Sequence record: NZ_CP070571.1
Length of the DNA stretch: 64,000 nucleotides
Strand: one strand, 5' to 3'
Source: a plasmid
Below the pieces are notes generated by a model. It had not been told where the DNA came from, did not search any database, and saw only the letters and a program-made list of their open reading frames with translations. The translations under genes and the position numbers were made by a program. Position 1 is the first letter of the stretch. The number at the start of each line of letters is the position of its first letter. Below are positions 24,973-43,287 of this stretch, piece by piece.

Positions 24973-25986
24973 ATGAAAACCGCCACTGCGCCGTTACCAC
25001 CGCTGCGTTCGGTCAAGGTTCTGGACCAGTTGCGTGAGCGCATACGCTACTTGCATTACAGTTTACGAACCGAACAGGCTTATGTCCACTGGGTTCGTGC
25101 CTTCATCCGTTTCCACGGTGTGCGTCACCCGGCAACCTTGGGCAGCAGCGAAGTCGAGGCATTTCTGTCCTGGCTGGCGAACGAGCGCAAGGTTTCGGTC
25201 TCCACGCATCGTCAGGCATTGGCGGCCTTGCTGTTCTTCTACGGCAAGGTGCTGTGCACGGATCTGCCCTGGCTTCAGGAGATCGGAAGACCTCGGCCGT
25301 CGCGGCGCTTGCCGGTGGTGCTGACCCCGGATGAAGTGGTTCGCATCCTCGGTTTTCTGGAAGGCGAGCATCGTTTGTTCGCCCAGCTTCTGTATGGAAC
25401 GGGCATGCGGATCAGTGAGGGTTTGCAACTGCGGGTCAAGGATCTGGATTTCGATCACGGCACGATCATCGTGCGGGAGGGCAAGGGCTCCAAGGATCGG
25501 GCCTTGATGTTACCCGAGAGCTTGGCACCCAGCCTGCGCGAGCAGCTGTCGCGTGCACGGGCATGGTGGCTGAAGGACCAGGCCGAGGGCCGCAGCGGCG
25601 TTGCGCTTCCCGACGCCCTTGAGCGGAAGTATCCGCGCGCCGGGCATTCCTGGCCGTGGTTCTGGGTTTTTGCGCAGCACACGCATTCGACCGATCCACG
25701 GAGCGGTGTCGTGCGTCGCCATCACATGTATGACCAGACCTTTCAGCGCGCCTTCAAACGTGCCGTAGAACAAGCAGGCATCACGAAGCCCGCCACACCG
25801 CACACCCTCCGCCACTCGTTCGCGACGGCCTTGCTCCGCAGCGGTTACGACATTCGAACCGTGCAGGATCTGCTCGGCCATTCCGACGTCTCTACGACGA
25901 TGATTTACACGCATGTGCTGAAAGTTGGCGGTGCCGGAGTGCGCTCACCGCTTGATGCGCTGCCGCCCCTCACTAGTGAGAGGTAG
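24973..25986 (+). CDS. intI1: class 1 integron integrase IntI1 (337 aa)
   Basis: [92 protein letters not shown]...[61 protein letters not shown]. Confidence 0.97.
25060..25088 (-). promoter_or_regulatory. cassette promoter Pc, variant PcH1 (TGGACA -17- TAAACT), inside the intI1 coding region
   Basis: Reverse complement of 25060-25088 is TGGACATAAGCCTGTTCGGTTCGTAAACT. The -35 TGGACA combined with the -10 TAAACT gives the hybrid-1 form. Confidence 0.75.
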
Positions 25987-26163
25987 GGCAGCGCAAGTCA
26001 ATCCTGGCGGATTCACTACCCCTGCGCGAAGGCCATCGGTGCCGCATCGAACGGCCGGTTGCGGAAAGTCCTCCCTGCGTCCGCTGATGGCCGGCAGCAG
26101 CCCGTCGTTGCCTGATGGATCCAACCCCTCCGCTGCTATAGTGCAGTCGGCTTCTGACGTTCA

Positions 26164-26188
26164 GTGCAGCCGTCTTCTGAAAACGACA
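26164..26188. repeat. class 1 integron IRi (25 bp)
   Basis: GTGCAGCCGTCTTCTGAAAACGACA is the reverse complement of TGTCGTTTTCAGAAGACGGCTGCAC. Confidence 0.85.
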
Positions 26189-26539
26189 ATGGAGGTGGTA
26201 GCCGAGGGTGTGGAAACACCCGACTGCCTTGCGTGGTTGCGGCAGGCGGGTTGCGACACGGTGCAGGGTTTCCTGTTCGCCAGGCCGATGCCGGCGGCGG
26301 CCTTCGTCGGCTTCGTCAACCAATGGAGGAACACCACCATGAACGCCAATGAACCGAGCACCAGTTGCTGCGTGTGCTGCAAGGAAATCCCGCTCGATGC
26401 CGCCTTCACGCCGGAAGGGGCCGAGTACGTGGAGCATTTCTGCGGGCTGGAGTGCTATCAGCGCTTCCAGGCGCGGGCCAGCACTGCGACCGAAACCAGC
26501 GTCAAACCGGACGCTTGTGATTCGCCGCCGTCAGGTTGA
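26188..26539 (+). CDS. tnpM: urf2M / tnpM-type remnant (EAL-domain C-terminus) of a Tn21-subfamily transposon, 117 aa
   Basis: [56 protein letters not shown]... begins exactly at the IRi boundary, the hallmark of an integron inserted in urf2. The track ORF 25925-26539 reads through IRi. Confidence 0.7.
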
Positions 26540-26714
26540 GGCATACCCTAACTTGATGTCAGGCAGGGCCGCGCCGCTTCGTCAGAATAGAGTCTGCTTT
26601 CCCATTTTTTGACACATGCCCGCGAAGGTTATAGATTTCAGCCTGACAGAAATGGGCTTTGAGGCACAACGGAACAGAAAGTGCACTTAAGCCGCCTTCA
26701 ACCAAGGAGACATC
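26540..26714. promoter_or_regulatory. res site region of the Tn21-subfamily module
   Basis: Gap upstream of tnpR in the position of res I-III. Subsites not mapped. Confidence 0.45.
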
Positions 26715-27275
26715 GTGCAGGGGCACCGCATCGGCTACGTCCGGGTCAGCAGCTTTGACCAGAACCCGGAACGCCAGCTGGAACAAACCCAGGTGAGCAA
26801 GGTGTTCACCGACAAGGCATCGGGCAAGGACACCCAGCGCCCCCAGCTCGAAGCGCTGCTGAGCTTCGTCCGCGAAGGCGATACAGTGGTGGTGCACAGC
26901 ATGGATCGGCTGGCCCGCAACCTCGATGACCTGCGTCGCTTGGTACAGAAGCTGACTCAGCGCGGCGTGCGCATCGAGTTCCTGAAGGAGGGCCTGGTGT
27001 TCACTGGCGAGGACTCGCCGATGGCCAACCTGATGCTGTCGGTGATGGGGGCCTTCGCTGAGTTCGAGCGCGCCCTGATCCGCGAGCGGCAGCGTGAGGG
27101 CATCGCCTTGGCCAAGCAGCGTGGCGCGTACCGGGGCCGCAAGAAAGCCCTGTCCGATGAGCAGGCTGCTACCCTGCGGCAGCGAGCGACGGCCGGCGAG
27201 CCCAAGGCGCAGCTTGCCCGCGAGTTCAACATCAGCCGGGAAACCCTCTACCAGTACCTCCGCACGGACGACTGA
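26715..27275 (+). CDS. tnpR: serine resolvase TnpR of a Tn1721/Tn501-type (Tn21-subfamily) transposon, 186 aa
   Basis: MQGHRIGYVRVSSFDQNPERQLEQTQVSKVFTDKASGKDTQRPQLEALLSFVREGDTVVVHSMDRLARNLDDL... N-terminus differs from the Tn21 TnpR (MTGQRIGYIRVSTFDQ...) as remembered. Confidence 0.85.
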   Translation: MQGHRIGYVRVSSFDQNPERQLEQTQVSKVFTDKASGKDTQRPQLEALLSFVREGDTVVVHSMDRLARNLDDLRRLVQKLTQRGVRIEFLKEGLVFTGEDSPMANLMLSVMGAFAEFERALIRERQREGIALAKQRGAYRGRKKALSDEQAATLRQRATAGEPKAQLAREFNISRETLYQYLRTDD

Positions 27276-27278
27276 CAC

Positions 27279-30245
27279 ATGCCGCGTCGCTTGATCCTCT
27301 CGGCCACGGAGCGGGACACCCTGCTTGCGCTGCCGGAAAGCCAGGATGACCTGATCCGCTACTACACCTTCAACGACTCCGACCTGTCGCTGATCCGCCA
27401 GCGACGCGGCGACGCCAACCGCCTCGGCTTCGCCGTGCAGCTCTGCCTGCTGCGCTACCCCGGTTACGCGCTGGGAACCGACAGCGAGCTGCCCGAGCCG
27501 GTCATCCTGTGGGTGGCGAAGCAAGTCCAGGCCGAGCCGGCGAGCTGGGCAAAGTACGGCGAGCGCGACGTGACCCGTCGCGAGCATGCCCAGGAACTGC
27601 GCACCTACCTGCAACTGGCCCCGTTCGGCCTGTCCGACTTCCGCGCCCTGGTGCGCGAGCTAACCGAGCTGGCCCAGCAGACCGACAAAGGCTTGCTGCT
27701 GGCCGGTCAGGCCCTGGAGAGCCTACGGCAGAAACGACGCATCCTGCCGGCGCTGAGCGTGATTGACCGGGCCTGCTCGGAAGCCATTGCGCGAGCCAAT
27801 CGGCGGGTCTACCGCGCCCTGGTCGAACCACTCACGGACTCGCATCGGGCCAAGCTGGACGAGCTGTTGAAGCTCAAGGCCGGCAGCAGCATCACCTGGT
27901 TGACCTGGCTGCGCCAGGCACCGCTGAAACCCAACTCTCGGCACATGCTGGAACACATCGAGCGGCTGAAGACATTTCAGTTGGTGGACTTGCCCGAAGG
28001 CCTGGGCCGGCACATCCACCAGAACCGCCTGCTCAAGCTGGCCCGCGAGGGTGGGCAGATGACGCCCAAAGACCTCGGTAAGTTCGAGCCGCAGCGCCGC
28101 TACGCGACCCTGGCCGCCGTGGTGCTGGAGAGCACCGCGACCGTGATCGATGAGCTGGTCGATCTGCATGACCGCATCCTGGTCAAGCTGTTCAGCGGCG
28201 CGAAGCACAAGCATCAGCAGCAGTTCCAGAAGCAGGGCAAGGCGATCAACGACAAGGTGCGCCTGTACTCCAGGATCGGCCAGGCGCTGCTGGAAGCGAA
28301 GGAAAGCGGCAGCGACCCCTATGCCGCCATCGAGGCGGTGATTCCCTGGGACGAGTTCACCGAGAGCGTCAGCGAGGCCGAGCTGCTGGCCCGGCCGGAA
28401 GGCTTCGACCACCTGCACCTGGTCGGCGAGAACTTCGCCACCCTGCGCCGTTACACGCCGGCCTTGCTGGAGGTGCTGGAACTGCGCGCCGCGCCGGCCG
28501 CGCAAGGCGTGCTGGCAGCCGTGCAGACCCTGCGTGAGATGAACGCCGACAACCTGCGCAAGGTGCCGGCCGATGCACCCACGGCCTTCATCAAGCCGCG
28601 CTGGAAGCCGCTGGTGATCACCCCGGAAGGCCTCGACCGGAAATTCTACGAAATCTGCGCCCTGTCCGAGCTGAAGAACGCCCTGCGCTCCGGCGACATC
28701 TGGGTCAAGGGCTCGCGGCAGTTCCGCGACTTCGACGACTACCTGCTGCCGGCCGAGAAGTTCGCCGCACTCAAGCGCGAGCAGGCCCTGCCCCTGGCGA
28801 TCAACCCGAACAGCGACCAGTACCTGGAAGAGCGTTTGCAGCTGCTGGACGAGCAGTTGGCCACCGTCACCCGCCTGGCCAAGGACAACGAGCTGCCCGA
28901 TGCCATCCTCACCGAGTCAGGGCTGAAAATCACCCCGCTGGATGCGGCGGTGCCGGATCGGGCGCAGGCGCTGATCGACCAAACCAGCCAGTTACTGCCG
29001 CGCATCAAGATCACCGAACTGCTGATGGACGTGGACGACTGGACGGGCTTCAGCCGCCACTTCACCCACTTGAAGGACGGGGCCGAGGCCAAAGACAGGA
29101 CGTTGCTGCTGTCCGCAATCCTCGGTGATGCGATCAACCTCGGGCTGACCAAGATGGCCGAGTCGAGCCCCGGCCTGACCTACGCCAAGCTGTCCTGGCT
29201 GCAAGCCTGGCACATCCGCGACGAAACCTATTCGGCGGCCTTGGCCGAGCTGGTCAACCACCAGTATCGCCACGCCTTTGCCGCCCACTGGGGCGACGGC
29301 ACGACCTCATCCTCCGATGGCCAGCGCTTCCGCGCGGGTGGCCGGGGCGAGAGCACCGGGCACGTCAACCCGAAGTACGGTAGCGAGCCGGGACGGCTGT
29401 TCTATACCCATATCTCCGACCAGTACGCGCCGTTCAGCACCCGCGTGGTGAATGTCGGCGTCCGCGATTCCACCTATGTGCTCGACGGCCTGCTGTACCA
29501 CGAGTCCGACCTGCGGATCGAGGAGCACTACACCGACACGGCCGGCTTCACCGATCACGTCTTTGCCCTGATGCACCTGCTAGGCTTCCGCTTCGCGCCG
29601 CGCATCCGCGACCTCGGCGAAACCAAGCTGTACGTGCCGCAGGGCGTGCAAGCCTACCCGACGTTGCGCCCGCTGATCGGCGGCACCCTGAACATCAAGC
29701 ACGTGCGTGCCCACTGGGACGACATCCTGCGCCTGGCCAGCTCGATCAAGCAGGGCACCGTCACCGCCTCGCTGATGCTGCGCAAGCTCGGCAGCTACCC
29801 GCGCCAGAACGGACTGGCCGTGGCCCTGCGCGAGCTGGGCCGGATCGAGCGCACGCTGTTCATCCTGGACTGGCTGCAAAGTGTTGAACTGCGCCGCCGC
29901 GTGCATGCCGGCCTGAACAAAGGTGAGGCGCGCAACTCGCTGGCCAGGGCGGTGTTCTTCAACCGCCTTGGGGAAATCAGGGATCGGAGCTTCGAGCAGC
30001 AGCGCTACCGGGCCAGCGGCCTCAACCTGGTGACGGCGGCTATCGTGCTGTGGAACACGGTGTACCTGGAACGCGCCACCCAGGGGTTGGTCGAGGCCGG
30101 CAAGCCGGTGGACGGCGAGCTGCTGCAATTCCTGTCGCCGCTGGGCTGGGAGCACATCAACCTAACCGGCGATTACGTCTGGCGGCAGAGCCGCAGACTG
30201 GAAGACGGGAAGTTTCGGCCCTTACGGATGCCCGGAAAACCTTAG
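27279..30245 (+). CDS. tnpA: Tn21-subfamily (Tn1721/Tn501-like) transposase TnpA, 988 aa
   Basis: 988-aa Tn3-family TnpA. The C-terminus runs into the 38-bp IR. Confidence 0.85.
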
Positions 30246-30543: not shown

Positions 30544-30847
30544 CATTCAGTCCTCAATTTGTGCATTTTTTAAACGAAAAAAGGGTGTCTAATACGGTGA
30601 AATCATAGTATTACCAAAGTAATAAATAAAAAGTTATTTAAATCAGTAATTTAGATTTGATTTGTAATACCTGGGTAATACCGCAGCATGGCTAAATTTT
30701 GTTTTTTTTCTTTTAAATCAGTGCGATAGCGTGATTTATCACGCTGCGTTAGGTGTATAGCAGGTTAAGGGATAAAAAATCATCTTTTTTTGGTAGGGCG
30801 ATCTCCGTAGGTTAAGGGGCATTTGGCTAAAAAGCGTCCTATTCTTT

Positions 30848-31092
30848 GATGGTCATGCTTGCATGACCATCTGAGCAACCAAAAACTACAGATAAACTAC
30901 AGATAAACTACAAAAAACGTTTTGCCTTAGTGTTGTAAGACTACAAATAGACTACAATAAAACTACAAATAAACTACAAAAAAACGTGACAGACTACAAA
31001 TAGACTACAATAAAACTACAGATAAACTACAAAACTCGATTGACCCCTTCTTACGAGTGTTGTAGAGTCATTTTCATACAACGGAGGGGGTT
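30848..31092 (+). promoter_or_regulatory. orphan oriT-like / StbA-binding region: 24-bp perfect palindrome plus about ten 11-bp direct repeats CTACA(A/G)ATA(A/G)A
   Basis: Palindrome GATGGTCATGCTTGCATGACCATC (30848-30871). Repeats ctacagataaa ctacagataaa ctacaaaaaac ... ctacaaatagactacaataaaactacaaataaa ... (30885-31047) lie immediately upstream of the stbA-like gene. The same architecture recurs at 55144-55303 beside the relaxase operon. Confidence 0.6.
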
Positions 31093-31479
31093 ATGAATAA
31101 ACCAGCAGATCTGAAACCCCGCAACTTATCGGCTGCTGTCAGATTGCGCCTAAATGAAATCGAGAACTGGCTGGACAGAGGGCTAACGCGGCATGAAATT
31201 GCTGAAATCCTCGACAGCGAATACAGCTTTTCGGTAACAGCCAAAGGGCTTGAGATGGCACTGTATAGAACGCGGCAAAACCGAAAAAATGTATTGCACA
31301 ATACGCATGATAAGAGTAGCGCGAAGGGTGCAGCGGAAAGTGTATTGCACAATACACAACCGTCTGAGCCTGAAGTGCAGGAAAGTAAAAAAGCAGAGAG
31401 TCCCGGCATTATTGATAAAGAATTCTTCAAGAAAATCGGTGAGAATTTCGACCCTAAGAAGTTCAACAAAAAATTCTGA
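31093..31479 (+). CDS. StbA-like DNA-binding protein, copy 1 (128 aa); about 60% identical to the copy at 54650-55084
   Basis: MNKPADLKPRNLSAAVRLRLNEIENWLDRGLTRHEIAEILDSEYSFSVTAKGLEMALYRTRQ aligns with MKKATELEPRNLSAAVRTRLDEIEGWLDKGVSRQEIAQLLDAEYSFSVTPKALEMALYRARL. Contains two GTATTGCACAATAC palindromes in its 3' half. Confidence 0.6.
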   Translation: MNKPADLKPRNLSAAVRLRLNEIENWLDRGLTRHEIAEILDSEYSFSVTAKGLEMALYRTRQNRKNVLHNTHDKSSAKGAAESVLHNTQPSEPEVQESKKAESPGIIDKEFFKKIGENFDPKKFNKKF

Positions 31480-31487
31480 GGTGATTT

Positions 31488-31562
31488 ATGAAAGTAGCGG
31501 TAATTAATTACAGTGGCAGTGTTCGTAAAACCTTAATTTCATCTTACCTGTTAGCCCCGCGC
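31488..31562 (+). pseudogene. StbB-like ATPase gene, first 25 codons, truncated by IS903B
   Basis: MKVAVINYSGSVRKTLISSYLLAPR (compare MKIAVMNYSGSVGKTIISSYLLYPR at 54637), then the IS903B IR at 31563. Confidence 0.7.
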
Positions 31563-32619
31563 GGCTTTGTTGAATAAATCAGATTTCGGGTAAGTCTCCC
31601 CCGTAGCGGGTTGTGTTTTCAGGCAATACGCACGCTTTCAGGCATACCTGCTTTCGTCATTTTGTTCAGCGCTCGTACCAGGGCCATAGCCTCTGCAACC
31701 TGACCATCGTAGTCACGCAGTGTCAGTGAACCTCCGAACAGCTGTTTTACCCGGTACATCGCCGTTTCCGCTATCGAGCGACGGTTGTAATCTGTTGTCC
31801 ATTTCCACCGCGCATTACTCCCGGTCAGCCGCTGATTCGCAACAGCACGGTTACGGTCTGCATATTCACCGGGCCAGTAACCCGCGCCTTTTCGGGGCGG
31901 GATAAGCGCGCTGATTTTCTTACGCCGCAGTTCATCGTGACAGAGTTGGGTGTCGTAAGCGCCGTCTGCCGATGCTGCCCTGATTTTTCTGTGAGTCTGC
32001 CGGATAAGACCCGGGAAGGCTTCTGAGTCCGTCACATTGTTCAGCGACAGGTTTGCACAGATGATTTCATGTGTGTTGCTGTCAACTGCCAGATGCAACT
32101 TTCGCCATATACGACGGCGTTCCTGGCCATGCTTTTTGACTTTCCATTCGCCTTCACCAAAGACCTTCAGCCCGGTGGAATCAATCACCAGATGCGCGAT
32201 TTCACCCCGGGTGAACGTTTTGAAACTGACATTAACCGACTTTGCGCGCTTGCTGACACTGGTGTAATCCGGGCAGCGCAACGGAACATTCATCAGTGTA
32301 AAAATGGAATCAATAAAACCCTGTGCAGCCCGCAGGGTCAACCTGAACACGCGTTTAATGACCAGAACGGTGGTGATGGCGAGATCAGAATAGCGCTGAG
32401 GTCTTCCCCGTGATGAAGGCGTTGCCGACTCATACCAGGCCTGAATAGCTTCATCATCCAGCCAGAAAGTTATGGAGCCACGGTTGATGAGGGCTTTATT
32501 GTAGGTGGGCCAGTTGGTTATTTTGAACTTTTGCTTTGCCACGGAATGGTCTGCGTTGTCGGGAAGATGCGTGATCTGATCCTTCAACTCAGCAAAAGTT
32601 CGATTTATTCAACAAAGCC
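31563..32619 (-). mobile_element. IS903B, complete, 1,057 bp
   Basis: 18-bp-plus IRs GGCTTTGTTGAATAAATC at 31563 and its complement ending at 32619. Length exactly 1,057 bp. Confidence 0.9.
31619..32587 (-). CDS. IS903B transposase (IS5 family, IS903 group)
   Basis: MKDQITHLPDNADHSVAKQKFKITNWPTYNKALINRGSITFWLDDEAIQAWYESATPSSRGRPQRYSDLAITTVLVIKRVFRLTLRAAQGF...KAGMPESVRIA. Confidence 0.9.
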   Translation of the reverse strand: MKDQITHLPDNADHSVAKQKFKITNWPTYNKALINRGSITFWLDDEAIQAWYESATPSSRGRPQRYSDLAITTVLVIKRVFRLTLRAAQGFIDSIFTLMNVPLRCPDYTSVSKRAKSVNVSFKTFTRGEIAHLVIDSTGLKVFGEGEWKVKKHGQERRRIWRKLHLAVDSNTHEIICANLSLNNVTDSEAFPGLIRQTHRKIRAASADGAYDTQLCHDELRRKKISALIPPRKGAGYWPGEYADRNRAVANQRLTGSNARWKWTTDYNRRSIAETAMYRVKQLFGGSLTLRDYDGQVAEAMALVRALNKMTKAGMPESVRIA

Positions 32620-33111
32620 GTCTGTGTTGTAAAATGGCGCCGAAAGCCCGGCGTAGCCGGTTGCCGGGCTATAAATTCTGCCACCCTACCCCCTGCCCTG
32701 ATTAGCCTTAACTCGCGAACAGCAATGAAGAAGTCAAAGTAATCCCTTTTAACCCCGGTGAGCGGGCTTTACGGCGTTTACGACGTAAAGGGCGTGATTT
32801 CCGGGGCCTAAGCGGCGGCAGCTTGCTGCTGACGCTTAGGGGGATGTTCATCAACTATTTCAGCGACACCAGGGAACTTAACACGGTAGCTGCAAAGCCC
32901 TAATCCCGCTCACCGCCACGCAGCTGCCGTACGTCCCCCACGGGGGTGCGCAGTGCTGCGCGCGGGAACGGCGGCCCGTCTGCGGGACGCGGCGCCGTAC
33001 TGCGCGTTAGCGGCCGCACGCGGCCGGTTACGGGGGACACTCCGCCATACGACCAGCGACCCGCTGAGCTGCACAATCCACAGATAACACAAGCTACATA
33101 CATGTCGATAT

Positions 33112-33940
33112 GGGAATCGGCCCACCTTGCCGGGCGCCGGTGCCGTGTGGAAATCCGCCCACCTTGCCGCGCGCCGGTGCCGTGTGGGAATCCGCCCACC
33201 TTGCCGCGCGCCGGTGCCGTGTGGGAATCCGCCCACCTTGCCGGGCGCCGGTGCTGTGTGGAAATCCGCCCACCTTGCCGCGCGCCGGTGCCGTGTGGGA
33301 ATCCGCCCACCTTGCCGCGCGCCGGTGCCGTGTGGGAATCCGCCCACCTTGCCGGGCGCCGGTGCTGTGTGGAAATCCGCCCACCTTACCGGGCGCCGGT
33401 GCCGTGTGGGAATCCGCCCACCTTACCGGGCGCCGGTGCCGTGTGGGAATCCGCCCACCTTACCGGGCGCCGGTGCTGTGTGGAAATCCGCCCACCTTGC
33501 CGCGCGCCGGTGCCGTGTGGGAATCCGCCCACCTTGCCGCGCGCCGGTGCCGTGTGGGAATCCGCCCACCTTGCCGGGCGCCGGTGCTGTGTGGAAATCC
33601 GCCCACCTTGCCGCGCGCCGGTGCCGTGTGGGAATCCGCCCACCTTGCCGCGCGCCGGTGCCGTGTGGGAATCCGCCCACCTTGCCGGGCGCCGGTGCTG
33701 TGTGGAAATCCGCCCACCTTACCGGGCGCCGGTGCTGTGTGGAAATCCGCCCATCTTGCCGGGCGCCGGTGCCGTGTGGGAATCCGCCCACCTTGCCGGG
33801 CGCCGGTGCTGTGTGGAAATCCGCCCACCTTACCGGGCGCCGGTGCTGTGTGGAAATCCGCCCATCTTGCCGGGCGCCGGTGCCGTGTGGGAATCCGCCC
33901 ACCTTACCGGGCGCCGGTGCTGTGTGGAAATCCGCCCATC
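33112..33940. repeat. tandem array of ~22 x 37-bp repeats (consensus TGGGAATCCGCCCACCTTGCCGCGCGCCGGTGCCGTG), head-to-tail with no spacers; iteron-like
   Basis: Read directly in the sequence. Unit variants (GGG/GGA, GCG/GGG, CCG/CTG, TTG/TTA/CTTG) recur with a 3-unit (111-bp) super-period. Lies about 50 bp upstream (on the coding strand) of the C-terminal fragment of a Rep_3-type repA. Confidence 0.85.
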
Positions 33941-33989
33941 TTCATGACAAAAATTTGTCAAATGACAGGCTCATGTGTGCTGATTTATG

Positions 33990-34292
33990 TCAGACGGGAT
34001 TTTGCTTATCAATTATTGAGAACAGAAATTTTCCTGAATCATCAATACTATACTTAGCAAGTAAAGGTGTTTTCTCATTTATCTGCTTGAGTGCAGGATC
34101 AAGGAAAGATCGTTTCAACTCTGCCAAGTTCTTCTGCTGGGATTCCGGTAAGACGAAACGGTCATTTAACCAAGCATGAGTAGTAACCCATAAGCCTGAA
34201 GATTTGAATTGAGCAAGACTTTCATAAAGGCGGATCGTCCGGGGATTTCGAAGACTGCCACAATCGCGGAGCGAGTAGGTGGTGAACTGGTT
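33990..34292 (-). pseudogene. repA: C-terminal ~100 codons of a second RepFIB-like (Rep_3 family) replication initiator, N-terminally truncated by IS1
   Basis: Reverse translation ...VITNQFTTYSLRDCGSLRNPRTIRLYESLAQFKSSGLWVTTHAWLNDRFVLPESQQKNLAELKRSFLDPALKQINEKTPLLAKYSIDDSGKFLFSIIDKQNPV* aligns at about 60% with the C-terminus of the intact RepA at 41874-42740. Confidence 0.7.
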
Positions 34293-34307
34293 GGTAATGA
34301 CTCCAAC

Positions 34308-34811
34308 TTACTGATAGTGTTTTATGTTCAGATAATGCCCGATGACTTTGTCATGCAGCGCCACCGATTTTGAGAACGACAGTGACTTCCTGCCCAGCCT
34401 TGCCAGATGCTGCCTCAGATTCTGGTTATGCCGCTCAATTCGCTGCGTATATCGCTTGCTGATAACGTGCAGTTCTCCCTTCAGGCGGGATTCATAAAGC
34501 GGCCAGCCATCCGTCATCCATACCACGACCTCAAAGGCCGACAGCAGGCCCGGAAGACGCTCCAGCGTGGCCAGAGTACGCTCACCAAAGACGCGTGCCA
34601 CCACCGTCCTGCACATCCTGCCATAGGCGTAAAATAACCAGCGCTGACGTGATTTAGCCCCGACGTAGCCCCACTGTTCGTCCATTTCCGCGCAGACAAT
34701 GACGTCACTGCCCGGTTGTATGCGTGAGGTTACCGACTGCGGTCTGAGTTTTTTAAGTGACGTAAAATCGTGTTGAGGCCAACGCCCATAATGCGGGCGG
34801 TTGCCCGGCAT
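34308..34811 (-). CDS. insB: IS1 InsB
   Basis: ...[30 protein letters not shown]...[70 protein letters not shown]. Confidence 0.9.
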
Positions 34812-35005
34812 CCAACGCCATTCATGGCCATATCAATGATTTTCTGGTGCGTACCGGGCTGAGAGGCGGTGTAAGTGAACTGTAGCTGCCATGTTTTACG
34901 GCAGTGAGAGCAGAGATAGCGCTGATGTCCGGCAGTACTTTTACCGTTACGCACCACGCCTTCAGTAGCTGAGCAGGAGGGACAACTGATGGAGATGGAA
35001 GCCAC
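34730..35005 (-). CDS. insA: IS1 InsA
   Basis: [91 protein letters not shown]. Confidence 0.9.
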
Positions 35006-35060
35006 TGGAGCACCTCAAAGACACCATCGTACACTAAATCAGTAAGTTGGCACCATTATC

Positions 35061-36950
35061 CGGCAGGCGATCTGGATTATCGTCACGCTGTTAAATATGT
35101 CGCGGTAGGGATACCCGTTACCGGATACCCCCCGCACAGATCCCGGCGTGCGCGATTTACGCACCGGGCTCCTGCCTCGGGTGTCTGGCGGTGAACCGCT
35201 CCACAGGCCATGGATGAAGAACCCGAACCCTTGGTAGCCATGCGGCTGCCAGTTTGTTTGCTTTCGTCCAGGTCGTATCATCCTTCTGGCTCCTGCGCCT
35301 GAGCGCCCGGCGCCAGAGGTTTGTTACGTGTGTCCTGAACTTCTGCATGGTGGGGAAGTTGCCCGGTACCGAGTGATAGTTCAGGTATCCCTGAACCACT
35401 CTCCTGAGCCATTTTCCCTGTTCGGGGATTGAGTAATGCCAGCGCCTTCGCAGACCGTCTTTGATGGCTTTCAGAGTTGCCGTCATCCGATCCCGGCGGG
35501 TCTTTCGTATCAGCATGAACCTGCCGTTGCGATCTTTCCCGCTGATGTGCGTGAACCCGAGGAAGTTGAACGTTTCTGGTTTGCCTTTTCCCCTGATGGC
35601 ACGGTTTTCGGCAGCGAAGCGGCCGAACTCCATCAGACGGGTTTTCTCCGGGTGAACCGTGAGTCCGAACTCCCTCAGTCTGCGCTGCATGGCTATACGG
35701 AAGCGCCGGGCATCGTATCGTTTGTCGAACCCGATGACGATGTCATCGGCGTATCTGACCATTACCACATTGCCTGTGGCATAGCGACGTCGCCACTGAT
35801 GCGCCCACAGATCGAAGACGTAGTGGAGGTATATGTTTGCCAGCAGCGGTGAGATGACCGCACCCTGTGGGGTGCCTTCCTCCGTTGCTCGCCATTGACC
35901 CTCCTCCAACGTCCCGGCTGTGAGCCACTTACGTATGAGCCTGATTACGCTCCGGTCGCCGATCCGATGCTCTGTGAACCTGATCAGCCATTCGTGGCTC
36001 ACCCTGTCGAAGAACTGACTGATGTCGGCATCCAGTACCCAGTTTACGTTAGTGCGTACCAGCCCTGTGGCCAGTGCGTCCAGTGCATCGTGCTGGCTTC
36101 GCCCGGGTCTGAACCCGTATGAGAACCCCATAAAGTCGTTTTCATAGACTGCGTTCAGGATTTTCACCAGCGCATACTGGACGATCTTGTCCTCCAGCGA
36201 GGCGATGCCGAGCGGGCGTTGTTTTCCATCCGCTTTTGGGATGTAGTGACGCCTGCCGGGCTGCGCCCTGTAGCTGCCCTAATGTAGCCTCCGGTGCAGA
36301 TCTGTTATGTTGTTCTTCATGTTTCCGGCGTAGTCCATCCACCTGATGCCATCCACTCCGGCGGCCGCTTTCCTGCTCAGGGAGAGGAATGCGGCTTCCA
36401 GTGCTTCGACTGTCAGCAGGTGGAACAATGCTGTAAACCGTTCTTTCTTCCGCTGCTTCGCAGCTTCCCGCACGCGTGACAGCCTCTGTGACATGCTTTC
36501 CCGGCTCTGTGTCCGGCGCATGTGTGGCTGTTCCGCGTTCCCCTTGGCCCCGCTCCTTCGCTCCACTGACTCCGCTCCTTTCGGGTTGTTCGCCTGCTTC
36601 GCCGCTACTATGAGCGAGTCCGACTTCTCCTCTCCGTACATCACCGGCTATGACTCCTCGTCTTCCCGGTGCGGGCCGTCTCCGACACTGGCAGATGGTC
36701 AGAGGGGAGATCTCCCGGTTCCCGCGTAGAGATCGTATTGACATGCCAGGGTCTCAGACCCCGCCGGGTCCATGTGGCACTCGCAGTATCGCACCCTATG
36801 ATGTTGCCTTCCGTTAACAGTACAACGTCGGCACCCGGTAATTTAATATACATTTCGTGGCTCAATGGCTGGCCTGTCAACACCCCTGTCAACGCTTCGC
36901 CCCATACCTCGCGGTATGCAACGCATGACTCGGGGACCTTGTGGATTGCT
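35061..36950 (-). mobile_element. group II intron remnant (approximate bounds); 3' end abuts IS1, 5' boundary not resolved
   Basis: Contains a reverse-transcriptase/maturase ORF (RT domains 0-7 with YADD, domain X motif QGYLNYHSVPGNF, no En domain). About 95 nt remain 3' of the ORF for domains V/VI. The 5' limit was placed about 430 nt upstream of the probable IEP start. Confidence 0.5.
35157..36644 (-). pseudogene. group II intron-encoded protein (RT-maturase) interrupted by a single in-frame amber codon (TAG at 36279-36281)
   Basis: The two track ORFs 36279-36644 and 35157-36167 are in the same frame. Direct reading gives ...[59 protein letters not shown]..., a contiguous RT domain 1-2. 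Confidence 0.75.
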
Positions 36951-41404: not shown

Positions 41405-41815
41405 CTGTGGGAAACAGGTCAACTTTAATGGACGCTCCGGACTATGGGAAACAGGTCAACTTCGCGGACGGCCCGGACTATGGGAAACAGGTCAACTTCA
41501 CGGGCGGCCGGGAGTGTGGGGAACAGGTCAACTTCGCGGACGGCCCGGATTATGGGAAACAGGTCAACTTCGCGGGCGGCCGGGACTGTGGGAAACAGGT
41601 CAACTTTGCAGACGGCCCGGACTGTGGGAAACAGGTCAACTTCGCGGGCGGCCGGGAGTGTGGGGAACAGGTCAACTTCGCGGACGGCCCGGACTAAGGG
41701 AAACAGGTCAGCTTCTCGGACGGCCCGGACTATGGGAAACAGGTCAACTTCTCGGACGGTCGGGAGTGTGGGAAACAGGTCAAGTTAGGCAAGCACTATG
41801 GGAAACACAGCAAGT
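41405..41815. repeat. RepFIB-type iteron array, about 11 x 36-37 bp (TATGGGAAACAGGTCAACTTCGCGGACGGCCCGGAC)
   Basis: Directly repeated units with the conserved core TGGGAAACAGGTCAAC on the 3' side of repA. Confidence 0.85.
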
Positions 41816-41873
41816 TCAGTATCCCCCCATATGTCAGCAACAAACTAAGGGGGGAGGAAATAAAAATTACAGA

Positions 41874-42740
41874 CTATTGTTTTTTATCAAGAAAATTAAA
41901 CAGCAAGCGACCATCTTCTTCAGTGGTATATGTTACCTTTAATGGCGTCTTCTCATTAATTTTCTTCAGAGCAGGTTCCAGGAAGGTACGCTTCATTTCA
42001 GCAATATTGTTTTTCTGCGAGGCAGGGAGCATAAACCTTTCACATAACCAGTCATGTGTGGTGATCCAGACACCAGTGCTCCGGAACTGACACAGGCTTT
42101 CATAAAGCCGGATGACACGAACACTATTAAGCTGGCCACAGTCATAGAGAGAATAGGTAGTGAACTGGGAGGTTAAGCCGACCAGGAATGGCATGACCTT
42201 GTAGTTAAATTCAATCTGCCAGGAACCCCGGCCTCGCTTCATTCCTGCTTCAGCCAGCCACGGACGTTTAACTTCTTCAAACTCACCTTCTTTTGGATAA
42301 AAGGTAACCGTTGATTCGCCCAGAGCATTTACCCCAGCCTTCACATCACGACTGGCGACAGACGTAGCGACATTGAAGTATTTGACGTAATCGGAAACGC
42401 TGATTTTGAAGAGCGGCAATACGTCAGAGTCATCTTCCTGGCTGTCATTAAAATAGGCCTGCATGAGGCATAACCACAGCACACGTTTTGCCTGAAGAGG
42501 CAGGTAATATGCAGCTTCGGTCAATTCGTTAGATTGCTTTATACTGGCGCGTTTTTTAAACGTTTTAGTAGCTGGCAAGAGTGCTTGAGTATCCATTTCA
42601 ATGCCTATGGGTAAATTTTTACCCACCCATAATGACAGTGAAAACAGAAATTGCAAGCTATCGCGATACTTATCCACCGGAAAAATCTGCACTTTATCCA
42701 CAAGTGGATAATTGAGAACTGAACTTGACCTCTTTCCCAT
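41874..42740 (-). CDS. repA: IncFIB-type replication initiator RepA (Rep_3 family), 288 aa
   Basis: MGKRSSSVLNYPLVDKVQIFPVDKYRDSLQFLFSLSLWVGKNLPIGIEMDTQALLPATKTFKKRASIKQSNELTEAAYYLPLQAKRVLWLCLMQ... flanked by iterons on both sides. Confidence 0.85.
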   Translation of the reverse strand: MGKRSSSVLNYPLVDKVQIFPVDKYRDSLQFLFSLSLWVGKNLPIGIEMDTQALLPATKTFKKRASIKQSNELTEAAYYLPLQAKRVLWLCLMQAYFNDSQEDDSDVLPLFKISVSDYVKYFNVATSVASRDVKAGVNALGESTVTFYPKEGEFEEVKRPWLAEAGMKRGRGSWQIEFNYKVMPFLVGLTSQFTTYSLYDCGQLNSVRVIRLYESLCQFRSTGVWITTHDWLCERFMLPASQKNNIAEMKRTFLEPALKKINEKTPLKVTYTTEEDGRLLFNFLDKKQ

Positions 42741-42800
42741 AGCTTGTTGATGCGTATCCCATAGCTTGTTGACACAAAACCCACTGATACGTGATTAATT
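42722..42800. repeat. upstream iteron-like repeats / repA operator (CCCATAGCTTGTTGA x2 plus related copies)
   Basis: tcccatagcttgttgatgcgtatcccatagcttgttgacacaaaacccactgatacgtgattaatttcccatatt overlaps the repA start. Confidence 0.6.
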
Positions 42801-43287
42801 TCCCATATTATGTTTACCAGTTGCCCATACAGGCCCCCTCTCAGGCCGCACTGTACGCGGCTTTCAGGCTCCCTAAAAGATGTAAAATAAAGAAAAAGAA
42901 TAAAAAAGTACTTTATAAAAATATGCCCGTGGATAAGTGGATAACCCCGAGGGGAGGTGATTTTTCAGGCATTGAGCGTAAGCAGAATTTATAAGTTTTG
43001 TTCCCTGGTGCTTCCTCGCTCACTCGGGGCTTCGCCCTGTCGCTCGACTGCGGCGAGCACTGCTGGCTCGATCATATCCGTGGCCGGAAGATACTACTCC
43101 TCCCCCGAGTCGCTCTCCAGAGCCGGCTACAGCGAGACAACCCGCACGAAGATTTCTATCGTCCCTGCAGACATATTCGAATCGTTTTTATTAACCCTGG
43201 CTTCCGTCGTGACAGAACACTACGTCCTGTAAAAGGGGGACTAAGGCCCCTGAATCACACACCTGAATAATGCGGAGTTTTACGATA

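Follow-up and report, generated by a model that had tools for sequence, protein, structure and literature searches.

The IncN plasmid pCU1 reportedly carries an array of 13 iteron units, and footprinting by Papp and Iyer in 1995 is said, as cited in PMC9412624, to have shown that IncN RepA binds the units of this plasmid. Deletion analysis of pCU1, reportedly published by Krishnan and Iyer in 1990, is said to have identified the downstream array as a negative-control and incompatibility locus. The native IncN1 array has been named 'iteron I', and IncN1-F33 hybrids hold 28 to 31 repeats (PMC6052338). In an intact IncN1 replicon, RepA would be expected to bind five 22-bp iterons that lie upstream of repA by a DnaA box and an AT-rich stretch and form the origin and operator side. 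It would also bind the long array of 37-bp units that follows closely behind the gene. Judging from P1 incA and F incC, this second array would limit copy number and mediate incompatibility by titrating RepA and by handcuffing, the two effects described for iterons located downstream of rep (PMC12361487).

Pieces of this replicon have also been described on plasmids of another group. In at least 74 IncR plasmids, IS903B, an IncN repA remnant, 37-bp iterons and IS1X3 lie upstream of retA; pST1023 has 24.3 copies of the 37-bp iteron, and the iterons of the IncR replicon itself are 36 bp long and present in 10.4 copies (PMC9412624). Here we describe a 37-bp repeat array beside a truncated repA in a 64-kb stretch of plasmid DNA from record NZ_CP070571.1 (the window). 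The results lead us to conclude that the locus is most likely a native IncN1 iteron array, left as a hitchhiking relic between IS903B and IS1X3 on an IncR backbone.

The 37-bp array and the truncated repA

Tandem Repeats Finder (TRF) identified a tandem array at 33111-33942 (minus strand) with a period of 37, 22.5 copies, 93% matches, no indels and a score of 1405, that is, 22 full units followed by an 18-bp partial unit. An earlier note, made from the sequence alone, had described about 22 head-to-tail units without spacers, and this description holds, since neither TRF nor unit typing found unique sequence between the units. A CRISPR array, which the note had likewise dismissed, was rejected because there are no unique spacers between the repeats. 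Typing of the 37-bp units distinguished nine variants, which are arranged as A BCD BCD EFG BCD BCD HID HIG, ending with the 18-bp partial unit. Self-identity of the array is 97.2% at a lag of 111, compared with 93.8% at a lag of 37 and 93.5% at a lag of 74, so the three-unit 111-bp super-period that had been proposed is genuine.

Each unit consists of a 19-bp RepA box (TGGGAATCCGCCCACCTTG) and an 18-bp GC-rich constant spacer, a division we draw because the 22-bp iterons upstream of intact repA genes carry an identical core. In intact IncN1 replicons there are five of these upstream iterons. An AT-rich stretch and the DnaA-box-like ATATCCACA come before the five iterons, which share the core TGGGAATnnGCCCACCTT with the 37-bp units. 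The array in the window has this core and the same consensus as in four intact IncN1 plasmids, and in all four of the intact IncN1 replicons that were inspected the identical 37-bp unit begins 47 bp past the repA stop. The 18-bp core TGGRAATNNGCCCAYCTT occurs at 23 sites in the window, every one of them within the array, where 0.15 would be expected by chance; no IncN boxes were found outside the array in the 64-kb window. Taken together, these matches identify the array as the predicted initiator-binding iterons of an IncN1 replicon.

The repA fragment beside the array (33990-34292, minus strand) has no start codon and comprises codons 140-239 of IncN1 RepA plus the stop. These 100 codons match Pfam Rep3_C at 6.7e-10, plus the end of Rep3_N, and keep the tail of the WH1 domain and the whole of WH2. 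The product is 99% identical to the C-terminus of the intact 239-aa IncN RepA WP_001749982.1; plasmids with that intact gene are conjugative, are typed IncN, MOBF and MPF_T, and have the neighbours mucAB, ardK and resP of the IncN1 backbone. Furthermore, the fragment and its spacer together show 96.8% DNA identity to R46. Judged by homology, the fragment is thus a remnant of IncN1 RepA, where the earlier note had called it RepFIB-like. An assignment to RepFIB was rejected on the basis of the nearest intact proteins (IncN RepA at 99%, then IncR RepB at 57-61%, with F-type RepE at 32%) and of plasmid typing, a comparison that did not extend to a RepFIB reference protein.

IS1X3, so named in identical plasmids, occupies 34293-35061 (minus strand) and directly abuts the fragment. 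Its terminal repeat, GGTAATGACTCCAACTTACTGAT, starts at 34293, and its InsB ORF (34308-34811) matches Pfam DDE_Tnp_IS1. The truncation falls at nucleotide 417 of the 720 in repA, after codon 139, which bears out the claim that IS1 cut away the N-terminus and left the C-terminal 100 codons; in RefSeq it is listed as a pseudogene under the label 'replication initiation protein, incomplete, missing N-terminus'. The stop codon lies at 33990-33992 and the array edge at 33942. Because repA is on the minus strand, the array is located downstream of the repA stop, 47 bp away, and not upstream as had been stated. An intact repA with its promoter, DnaA box, AT-rich region and five 22-bp iterons is absent beside the array, where IS1X3 abuts, and there is no functional IncN1 replicon at 33990-34292.

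The 47 bp that separate the array from the repA stop (33943-33989, minus strand) form a spacer, which contains the palindrome TGACAAA-nn-TTTGTCA at 33945-33960 and is identical in intact IncN1 plasmids. A conserved upstream repeat (CUP) element at 32890-33110 (minus strand) flanks the far end of the array, and its positions 32890-33092 are about 83% identical to four dispersed positions in R46, one of them right next to the array of that plasmid. A DnaA-box-like CAATCCACA is present at this far end (33079-33087). Beyond the CUP element, where an IncN1 replicon has resP, this gene is absent, and a 270-bp stretch and IS903B stand in its place. The 270-bp stretch (32620-32889) is unannotated and non-coding; by megablast it is present in 2458 PLSDB records, 1832 of them from Klebsiella, with no annotated feature, and it has no match in R46.

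IS903B, a member of the IS5 family (31563-32619, minus strand), forms the left boundary of the IncN-derived fragment. Its terminal repeat, closing with CGATTTATTCAACAAAGCC, ends at 32619, and the left end at 31563 is deduced from the element length of 1057 bp. The ORF at 31619-32587 matches Pfam DDE_Tnp_1_5 and DDE_Tnp_1 and is labelled IS5 family transposase in identical plasmids, and the element name is that given in PMC9412624.

Replication of the plasmid itself is assigned to a working IncR replicon at 41408-42960 (minus strand), made up of repB, a 36-bp array and an origin module. The array, found by TRF, consists of 10.4 copies of a 36-bp unit (41408-41783, minus strand). Next to it lies an intact 288-aa repB (41874-42740, minus strand) with Pfam Rep3_N and Rep3_C, and DnaA boxes, an AT-rich region and 22-bp iterons can be recognized in the sequence at about 42741-42960 (minus strand). 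The earlier note was right that the plasmid has an intact replicon with about 11 units of a different sequence; the FIB type that it gave to this replicon has to be replaced by IncR. The host plasmids that are identical over the relic are typed IncR by PLSDB, where they are typed.

Array length and how it changes

The array had been called hyper-expanded. Intact IncN1 arrays contain 40.5 copies in NZ_CP093156, 30.5 in NZ_CP083447 and 34.9 in the auxiliary IncN1 replicon of p721005-KPC, and among these four intact replicons only that of R46, with 6.5 copies, is shorter than the array in the window. Cognate replicons therefore carry arrays at least as long, and the term is not warranted.

A wider survey gave the same picture. 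The unique flanks of the array were joined as one query and the intervening span was read in each matching record, a procedure that reproduces the window array to within 0.3 unit. Arrays next to an intact IncN1 repA measured 9.5, 12.5, 12.5, 15.5, 30.6, 33, 34, 35.6, 35.6, 41.4, 41.6, 41.6 and 41.7 units, lengths that, like all those taken from public assemblies, may be wrong where short reads were used or reads fail to span the array; one IncN record apparently lacked an array. IS1-truncated relic arrays elsewhere measured 8.5 (three records), 10.5, 11.5, 13.5, 14.5 (three), 16.5, 17.5, 22.5 (five), 25.5 (two), 26.5 (two) and 27.5 units. The 22.5 units of the window are thus mid-range, since intact IncN1 replicons span 6.5 to about 42 units, most of them 30-42: the array is longer than that of R46 and than the 13 units reported for pCU1, and most of the intact IncN1 arrays found today exceed it in length. 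The length and block structure of such arrays may favour assembly collapse, and caution is advisable with the copy numbers reported for them. Additionally, the range of 6.5 to about 42 units in intact IncN1 replicons is an under-explored variable for IncN copy-number control.

Unit strings were compared across plasmids by core-anchored parsing, with two intact arrays counted from TRF and published figures. In core-anchored letters the window array reads ABACBACDDCDDAEE-CDDCDDF (22.5 units), the relic of AP021971 reads ABACBACDDCDDAEE-BACBA-CDDCDDF (27.5 units) and that of NZ_CP024430 reads CDDCGDDF (8.5 units). The end units and both flanks of the relic siblings are alike, and their interiors differ by insertions and deletions of blocks. 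These differences are the expected product of unequal exchange or replication slippage between repeats, and they support, at the level of sequence, the proposal that the array grew by block duplication. Shrinkage is seen as well, and the relic array appears to shrink as readily as it grows.

Intact arrays also show higher-order blocks. A five-unit block of 186 bp is repeated five times in NZ_CP093156 and three times in NZ_CP083447, and some units in intact arrays are 38 bp long. Sampling of intact arrays did not turn up a donor IncN lineage with the 'D' unit variant. Units of the relic show no decay relative to those of intact arrays. Constraint could explain this; recent origin fits equally well, because the copies in hundreds of plasmids are 100% identical.

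Distribution and possible roles of the relic

The 1.7-kb segment 32600-34320 is 100% identical in dozens of plasmids from Klebsiella, E. coli, Enterobacter and Leclercia. The window and these identical plasmids share a gene order of stbA, an IS5-family insertion sequence, unannotated repeats, IS1X3, ltrA/retA (a group II intron gene), umuDC, parBA and repB. At least 669 PLSDB plasmids contain the junction between the truncated repA and IS1X3, and among 5426 complete E. coli genomes it was found in 156. Intact IncN1 was found in 289 of the same 5426 genomes, and from these marginal counts about eight overlaps would be expected under independence. The window contains each of the parts of region N as published, namely IS903B, the truncated repA, the iterons, IS1X3, retA and the IncR backbone genes umuDC, parAB and repB. 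We conclude that the relic block is already known as region N and that, by its sequence, the array corresponds to the iterons already described for IncN1.

Relic and intact replicon can occur together. In p721005-KPC the relic is on one molecule with the intact IncN1 replicon of 34.9 units, and further IncN repA pieces accompany the relic in other plasmids. IncR and IncN replicons are also known to coexist on single plasmids (PMC6353027). NZ_CP032067 and NZ_CP032075 were considered as a case of co-residence on separate replicons and rejected, as they come from different strains.

We propose that a single IS1/IS903B event, linked to the IncR backbone, gave rise to every copy of the relic, as their identical sequences indicate. 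IS1 deprived the IncN1 replicon of the repA promoter, of codons 1-139 and of its entire origin. With no RepA made, nothing would fire, and the array would therefore be silent and ride with the IncR replicon, its length drifting through unequal exchange between multi-unit blocks. Were an IncN1 plasmid to enter the same cell, its RepA should bind the 23 predicted boxes, and its copy number may drop. Such an effect would plausibly be a by-product and not a demonstrated function.

That an incompatibility array can act as a sink for initiator, as the earlier note suggested, is standard iteron biology, and the idea is plausible where an IncN1 plasmid is present. The orphan array is carried by hundreds of IncR and mosaic plasmids. 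We consider it unlikely that, through RepA titration or handcuffing, it measurably lowers the copy number of IncN1 plasmids in the same cell or makes them less stable. If it did, the array would shape which resistance plasmids coexist in Klebsiella and E. coli, and the length polymorphism of 8.5-27.5 units would tune the strength of the interference.

A first alternative is that the array is kept on IncR plasmids as a selected sink against IncN, which would titrate or handcuff incoming RepA and so exclude competitors. Its 23 predicted RepA boxes are intact and of native sequence, the relic is very widespread, and extra iterons in trans generally depress the copy number of a cognate plasmid (PMC12361487). 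However, common descent from one IS1/IS903B event linked to the IncR backbone accounts for the spread of the relic, given its 100% identical copies and the published distribution (PMC9412624). Tight constraint is also unlikely, because the arrays of different carriers range from 8.5 to 27.5 units, a threefold difference. The presence of relic and intact IncN1 replicon on the single molecule p721005-KPC, and of further IncN repA pieces in other relic plasmids, likewise argues against exclusion. We see no sign of selection for such a role and regard it as improbable.

A second alternative is that IncR RepB binds the IncN boxes, so that the array adds to the copy-control burden of the IncR replicon. 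The two initiators, RepB and IncN RepA, share 57% identity over 234 aa and across both winged-helix domains, and the IncR 36-bp unit, which begins TGGGAAACAGGTCAACTT, shares TGGGAA and its overall layout with the IncN unit. The box cores nevertheless differ at several positions (GCCCACC versus GGTCAAC), and a search that tolerated up to two mismatches detected no IncN-type core in the IncR array. Furthermore, IncR and IncN are distinct incompatibility groups whose replicons coexist on single plasmids, as noted above, and IncR plasmids with 8.5 to 27.5 IncN units all persist. Cross-talk of this kind is accordingly very unlikely.

Slightly less probable again is the suggestion that the relic is a dormant secondary origin that fires once RepA is provided in trans by an IncN1 plasmid. 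Zoueva et al. in 2003 (cited in PMC7826253) reportedly described a cluster of three origins in pCU1, of which one or more depend on RepA, and the DnaA-box-like sequence at the far array end would fit such an origin. The canonical module of DnaA box, AT-rich region and 22-bp iterons, however, lies upstream of repA in intact replicons and is deleted here, and there is no AT-rich unwinding element by the array, whose flanks are GC-rich.

Finally, the reading of the repeats as part of a repetitive protein-coding gene can be dismissed: long ORFs do run through the array in all frames (315-350 aa on the plus strand, shorter on the minus strand) and a hypothetical protein is annotated over it in one public record, but ORFs arise in every frame because the GC-rich 37-mer is stop-free and 37 is not divisible by three, so that they cycle through all three frames, four array ORFs that were scanned had no Pfam family above cutoff, RefSeq PGAP places no gene there, and sibling plasmids differ in copy number by non-multiples of three units. 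The earlier note's judgement that these ORFs are repeat artefacts was sound.

The reading of the locus as a hitchhiking IncN1 relic has a practical consequence for plasmid typing. Replicon-typing tools can report 'IncN' for plasmids that hold only the dead relic fragment, and multiple IncN calls were seen. As a subject in itself, a textbook-type iteron locus in a published and very common plasmid relic has little discovery value.

Comparison with known iteron loci

The closest described system is region N of the IncR plasmids, represented by pST1023 (PMC9412624). Its parts, their order and their position upstream of retA match the window, and only the number of repeats differs, with 24.3 in pST1023 and 22.5 here. 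The native IncN1 arrays of R46, pCU1 and pKM101 share with the window array the unit, the orientation, the 47-bp spacer and the CUP element at the far end. In contrast to these native replicons, repA in the window is reduced to codons 140-239, and the origin that should precede it has been lost. Higher-order blocks also differ in size, with three units in the window and five units (186 bp) in NZ_CP093156 and NZ_CP083447, and the unit variant GCGCGCGG of the window array was not seen among the intact IncN1 arrays sampled.

The IncR replicon of the same plasmid is a homologue of the IncN1 replicon and has its layout, with DnaA boxes, an AT-rich region, 22-bp iterons, rep and a long array of 36- or 37-bp units. 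It differs from the IncN relic in its box sequence and in being intact and working, and the copy number of its array is fixed in the literature at about 10.4.

P1 incA and F incC are, like the IncN array, clusters of initiator boxes located just downstream of rep and apart from the origin iterons, and by analogy the IncN array would be expected to share their mechanism of titration and handcuffing (PMC12361487). The P1 and F loci consist of 5-9 short repeats of 19-22 bp, whereas the arrays of IncN and IncR have 6-42 units, which are 36-37 bp long and include a GC-rich spacer that is constant.

Surroundings of the repA remnant and distribution of its junction

A spacer of 47 bp separates the repA stop codon from the first iteron of the IncN1 array and contains a perfect palindrome, TGACAAA-nn-TTTGTCA (window 33945-33960), which is kept in intact IncN1 plasmids and could serve as a protein site or as a weak terminator. 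At the other end of delta-repA, the IS1X3-truncated remnant of the IncN1 repA gene, the fragment and the IS1 InsB gene share a reading frame with one TAA stop between them (window 34293-34310). The fragment lacks a start codon of its own, and the shared frame is probably a coincidence. Among the matches listed from E. coli genomes, the delta-repA::IS1X3 junction was found in one chromosome, that of strain D4 (NZ_CP010143.1, 4742213-4742512), and in two strains it is present on two separate plasmids per cell (NZ_AP027856 and NZ_AP027857; NZ_AP027472 and NZ_AP027473).

Sequences flanking the IncN relic

IS903B and the CUP repeat are separated by an unannotated, non-coding stretch of 270 bp (window 32620-32889). 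Sequence comparison to the IncN1 plasmid R46 revealed no counterpart of this stretch in that plasmid. Matches at 95-100% identity are found in about 2,300-2,450 plasmids of the PLSDB database, three quarters of which are from Klebsiella.

The region to the left of IS903B (window 30544-31561) is a diverged IncN-like oriT-stbA module. It comprises an oriT-like region with 80% identity to the R46 oriT region (30544-30866), 11-bp tandem repeats (30883-31033) like those that precede stbA in R46, and stbA itself (31093-31479). The start of stbB is interrupted by IS903B. The presence of this module may be the reason that these IncR plasmids, which are not conjugative, are typed as 'mobilizable'.

Parts of a Tn21-family transposon were also observed upstream of the stbA module (window 25925-30245), namely a DUF3330/EAL urf2-like ORF and a 988-aa Tn3-family transposase. 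Elsewhere in the window, the ltrA/retA gene for a group II intron reverse transcriptase/maturase (35157-36644, minus strand) is interrupted in frame by a stop at codon 122 and is thus a pseudogene. The same defect is found in the annotation of E. coli p.E166-P1; the copy in NZ_CP020500 is intact.

Comparison with intact IncN1 and IncR replicons

Iteron number among intact IncN1 replicons has a more than 6-fold spread, with 6.5 units in R46 (32510-32749) versus 40.5 in NZ_CP093156 (768-2271). Block structure varies among these arrays as well, as illustrated by a 186-bp block of five units, one of them 38 bp long. The IncR replicon (window 41408-42960) is clearly homologous to that of IncN1 plasmids. 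IncR RepB is 57% identical to IncN1 RepA, and the two replicons have in common, in the same order, DnaA boxes, an AT-rich region, 22-bp iterons, the rep gene and a 36/37-bp tandem array.
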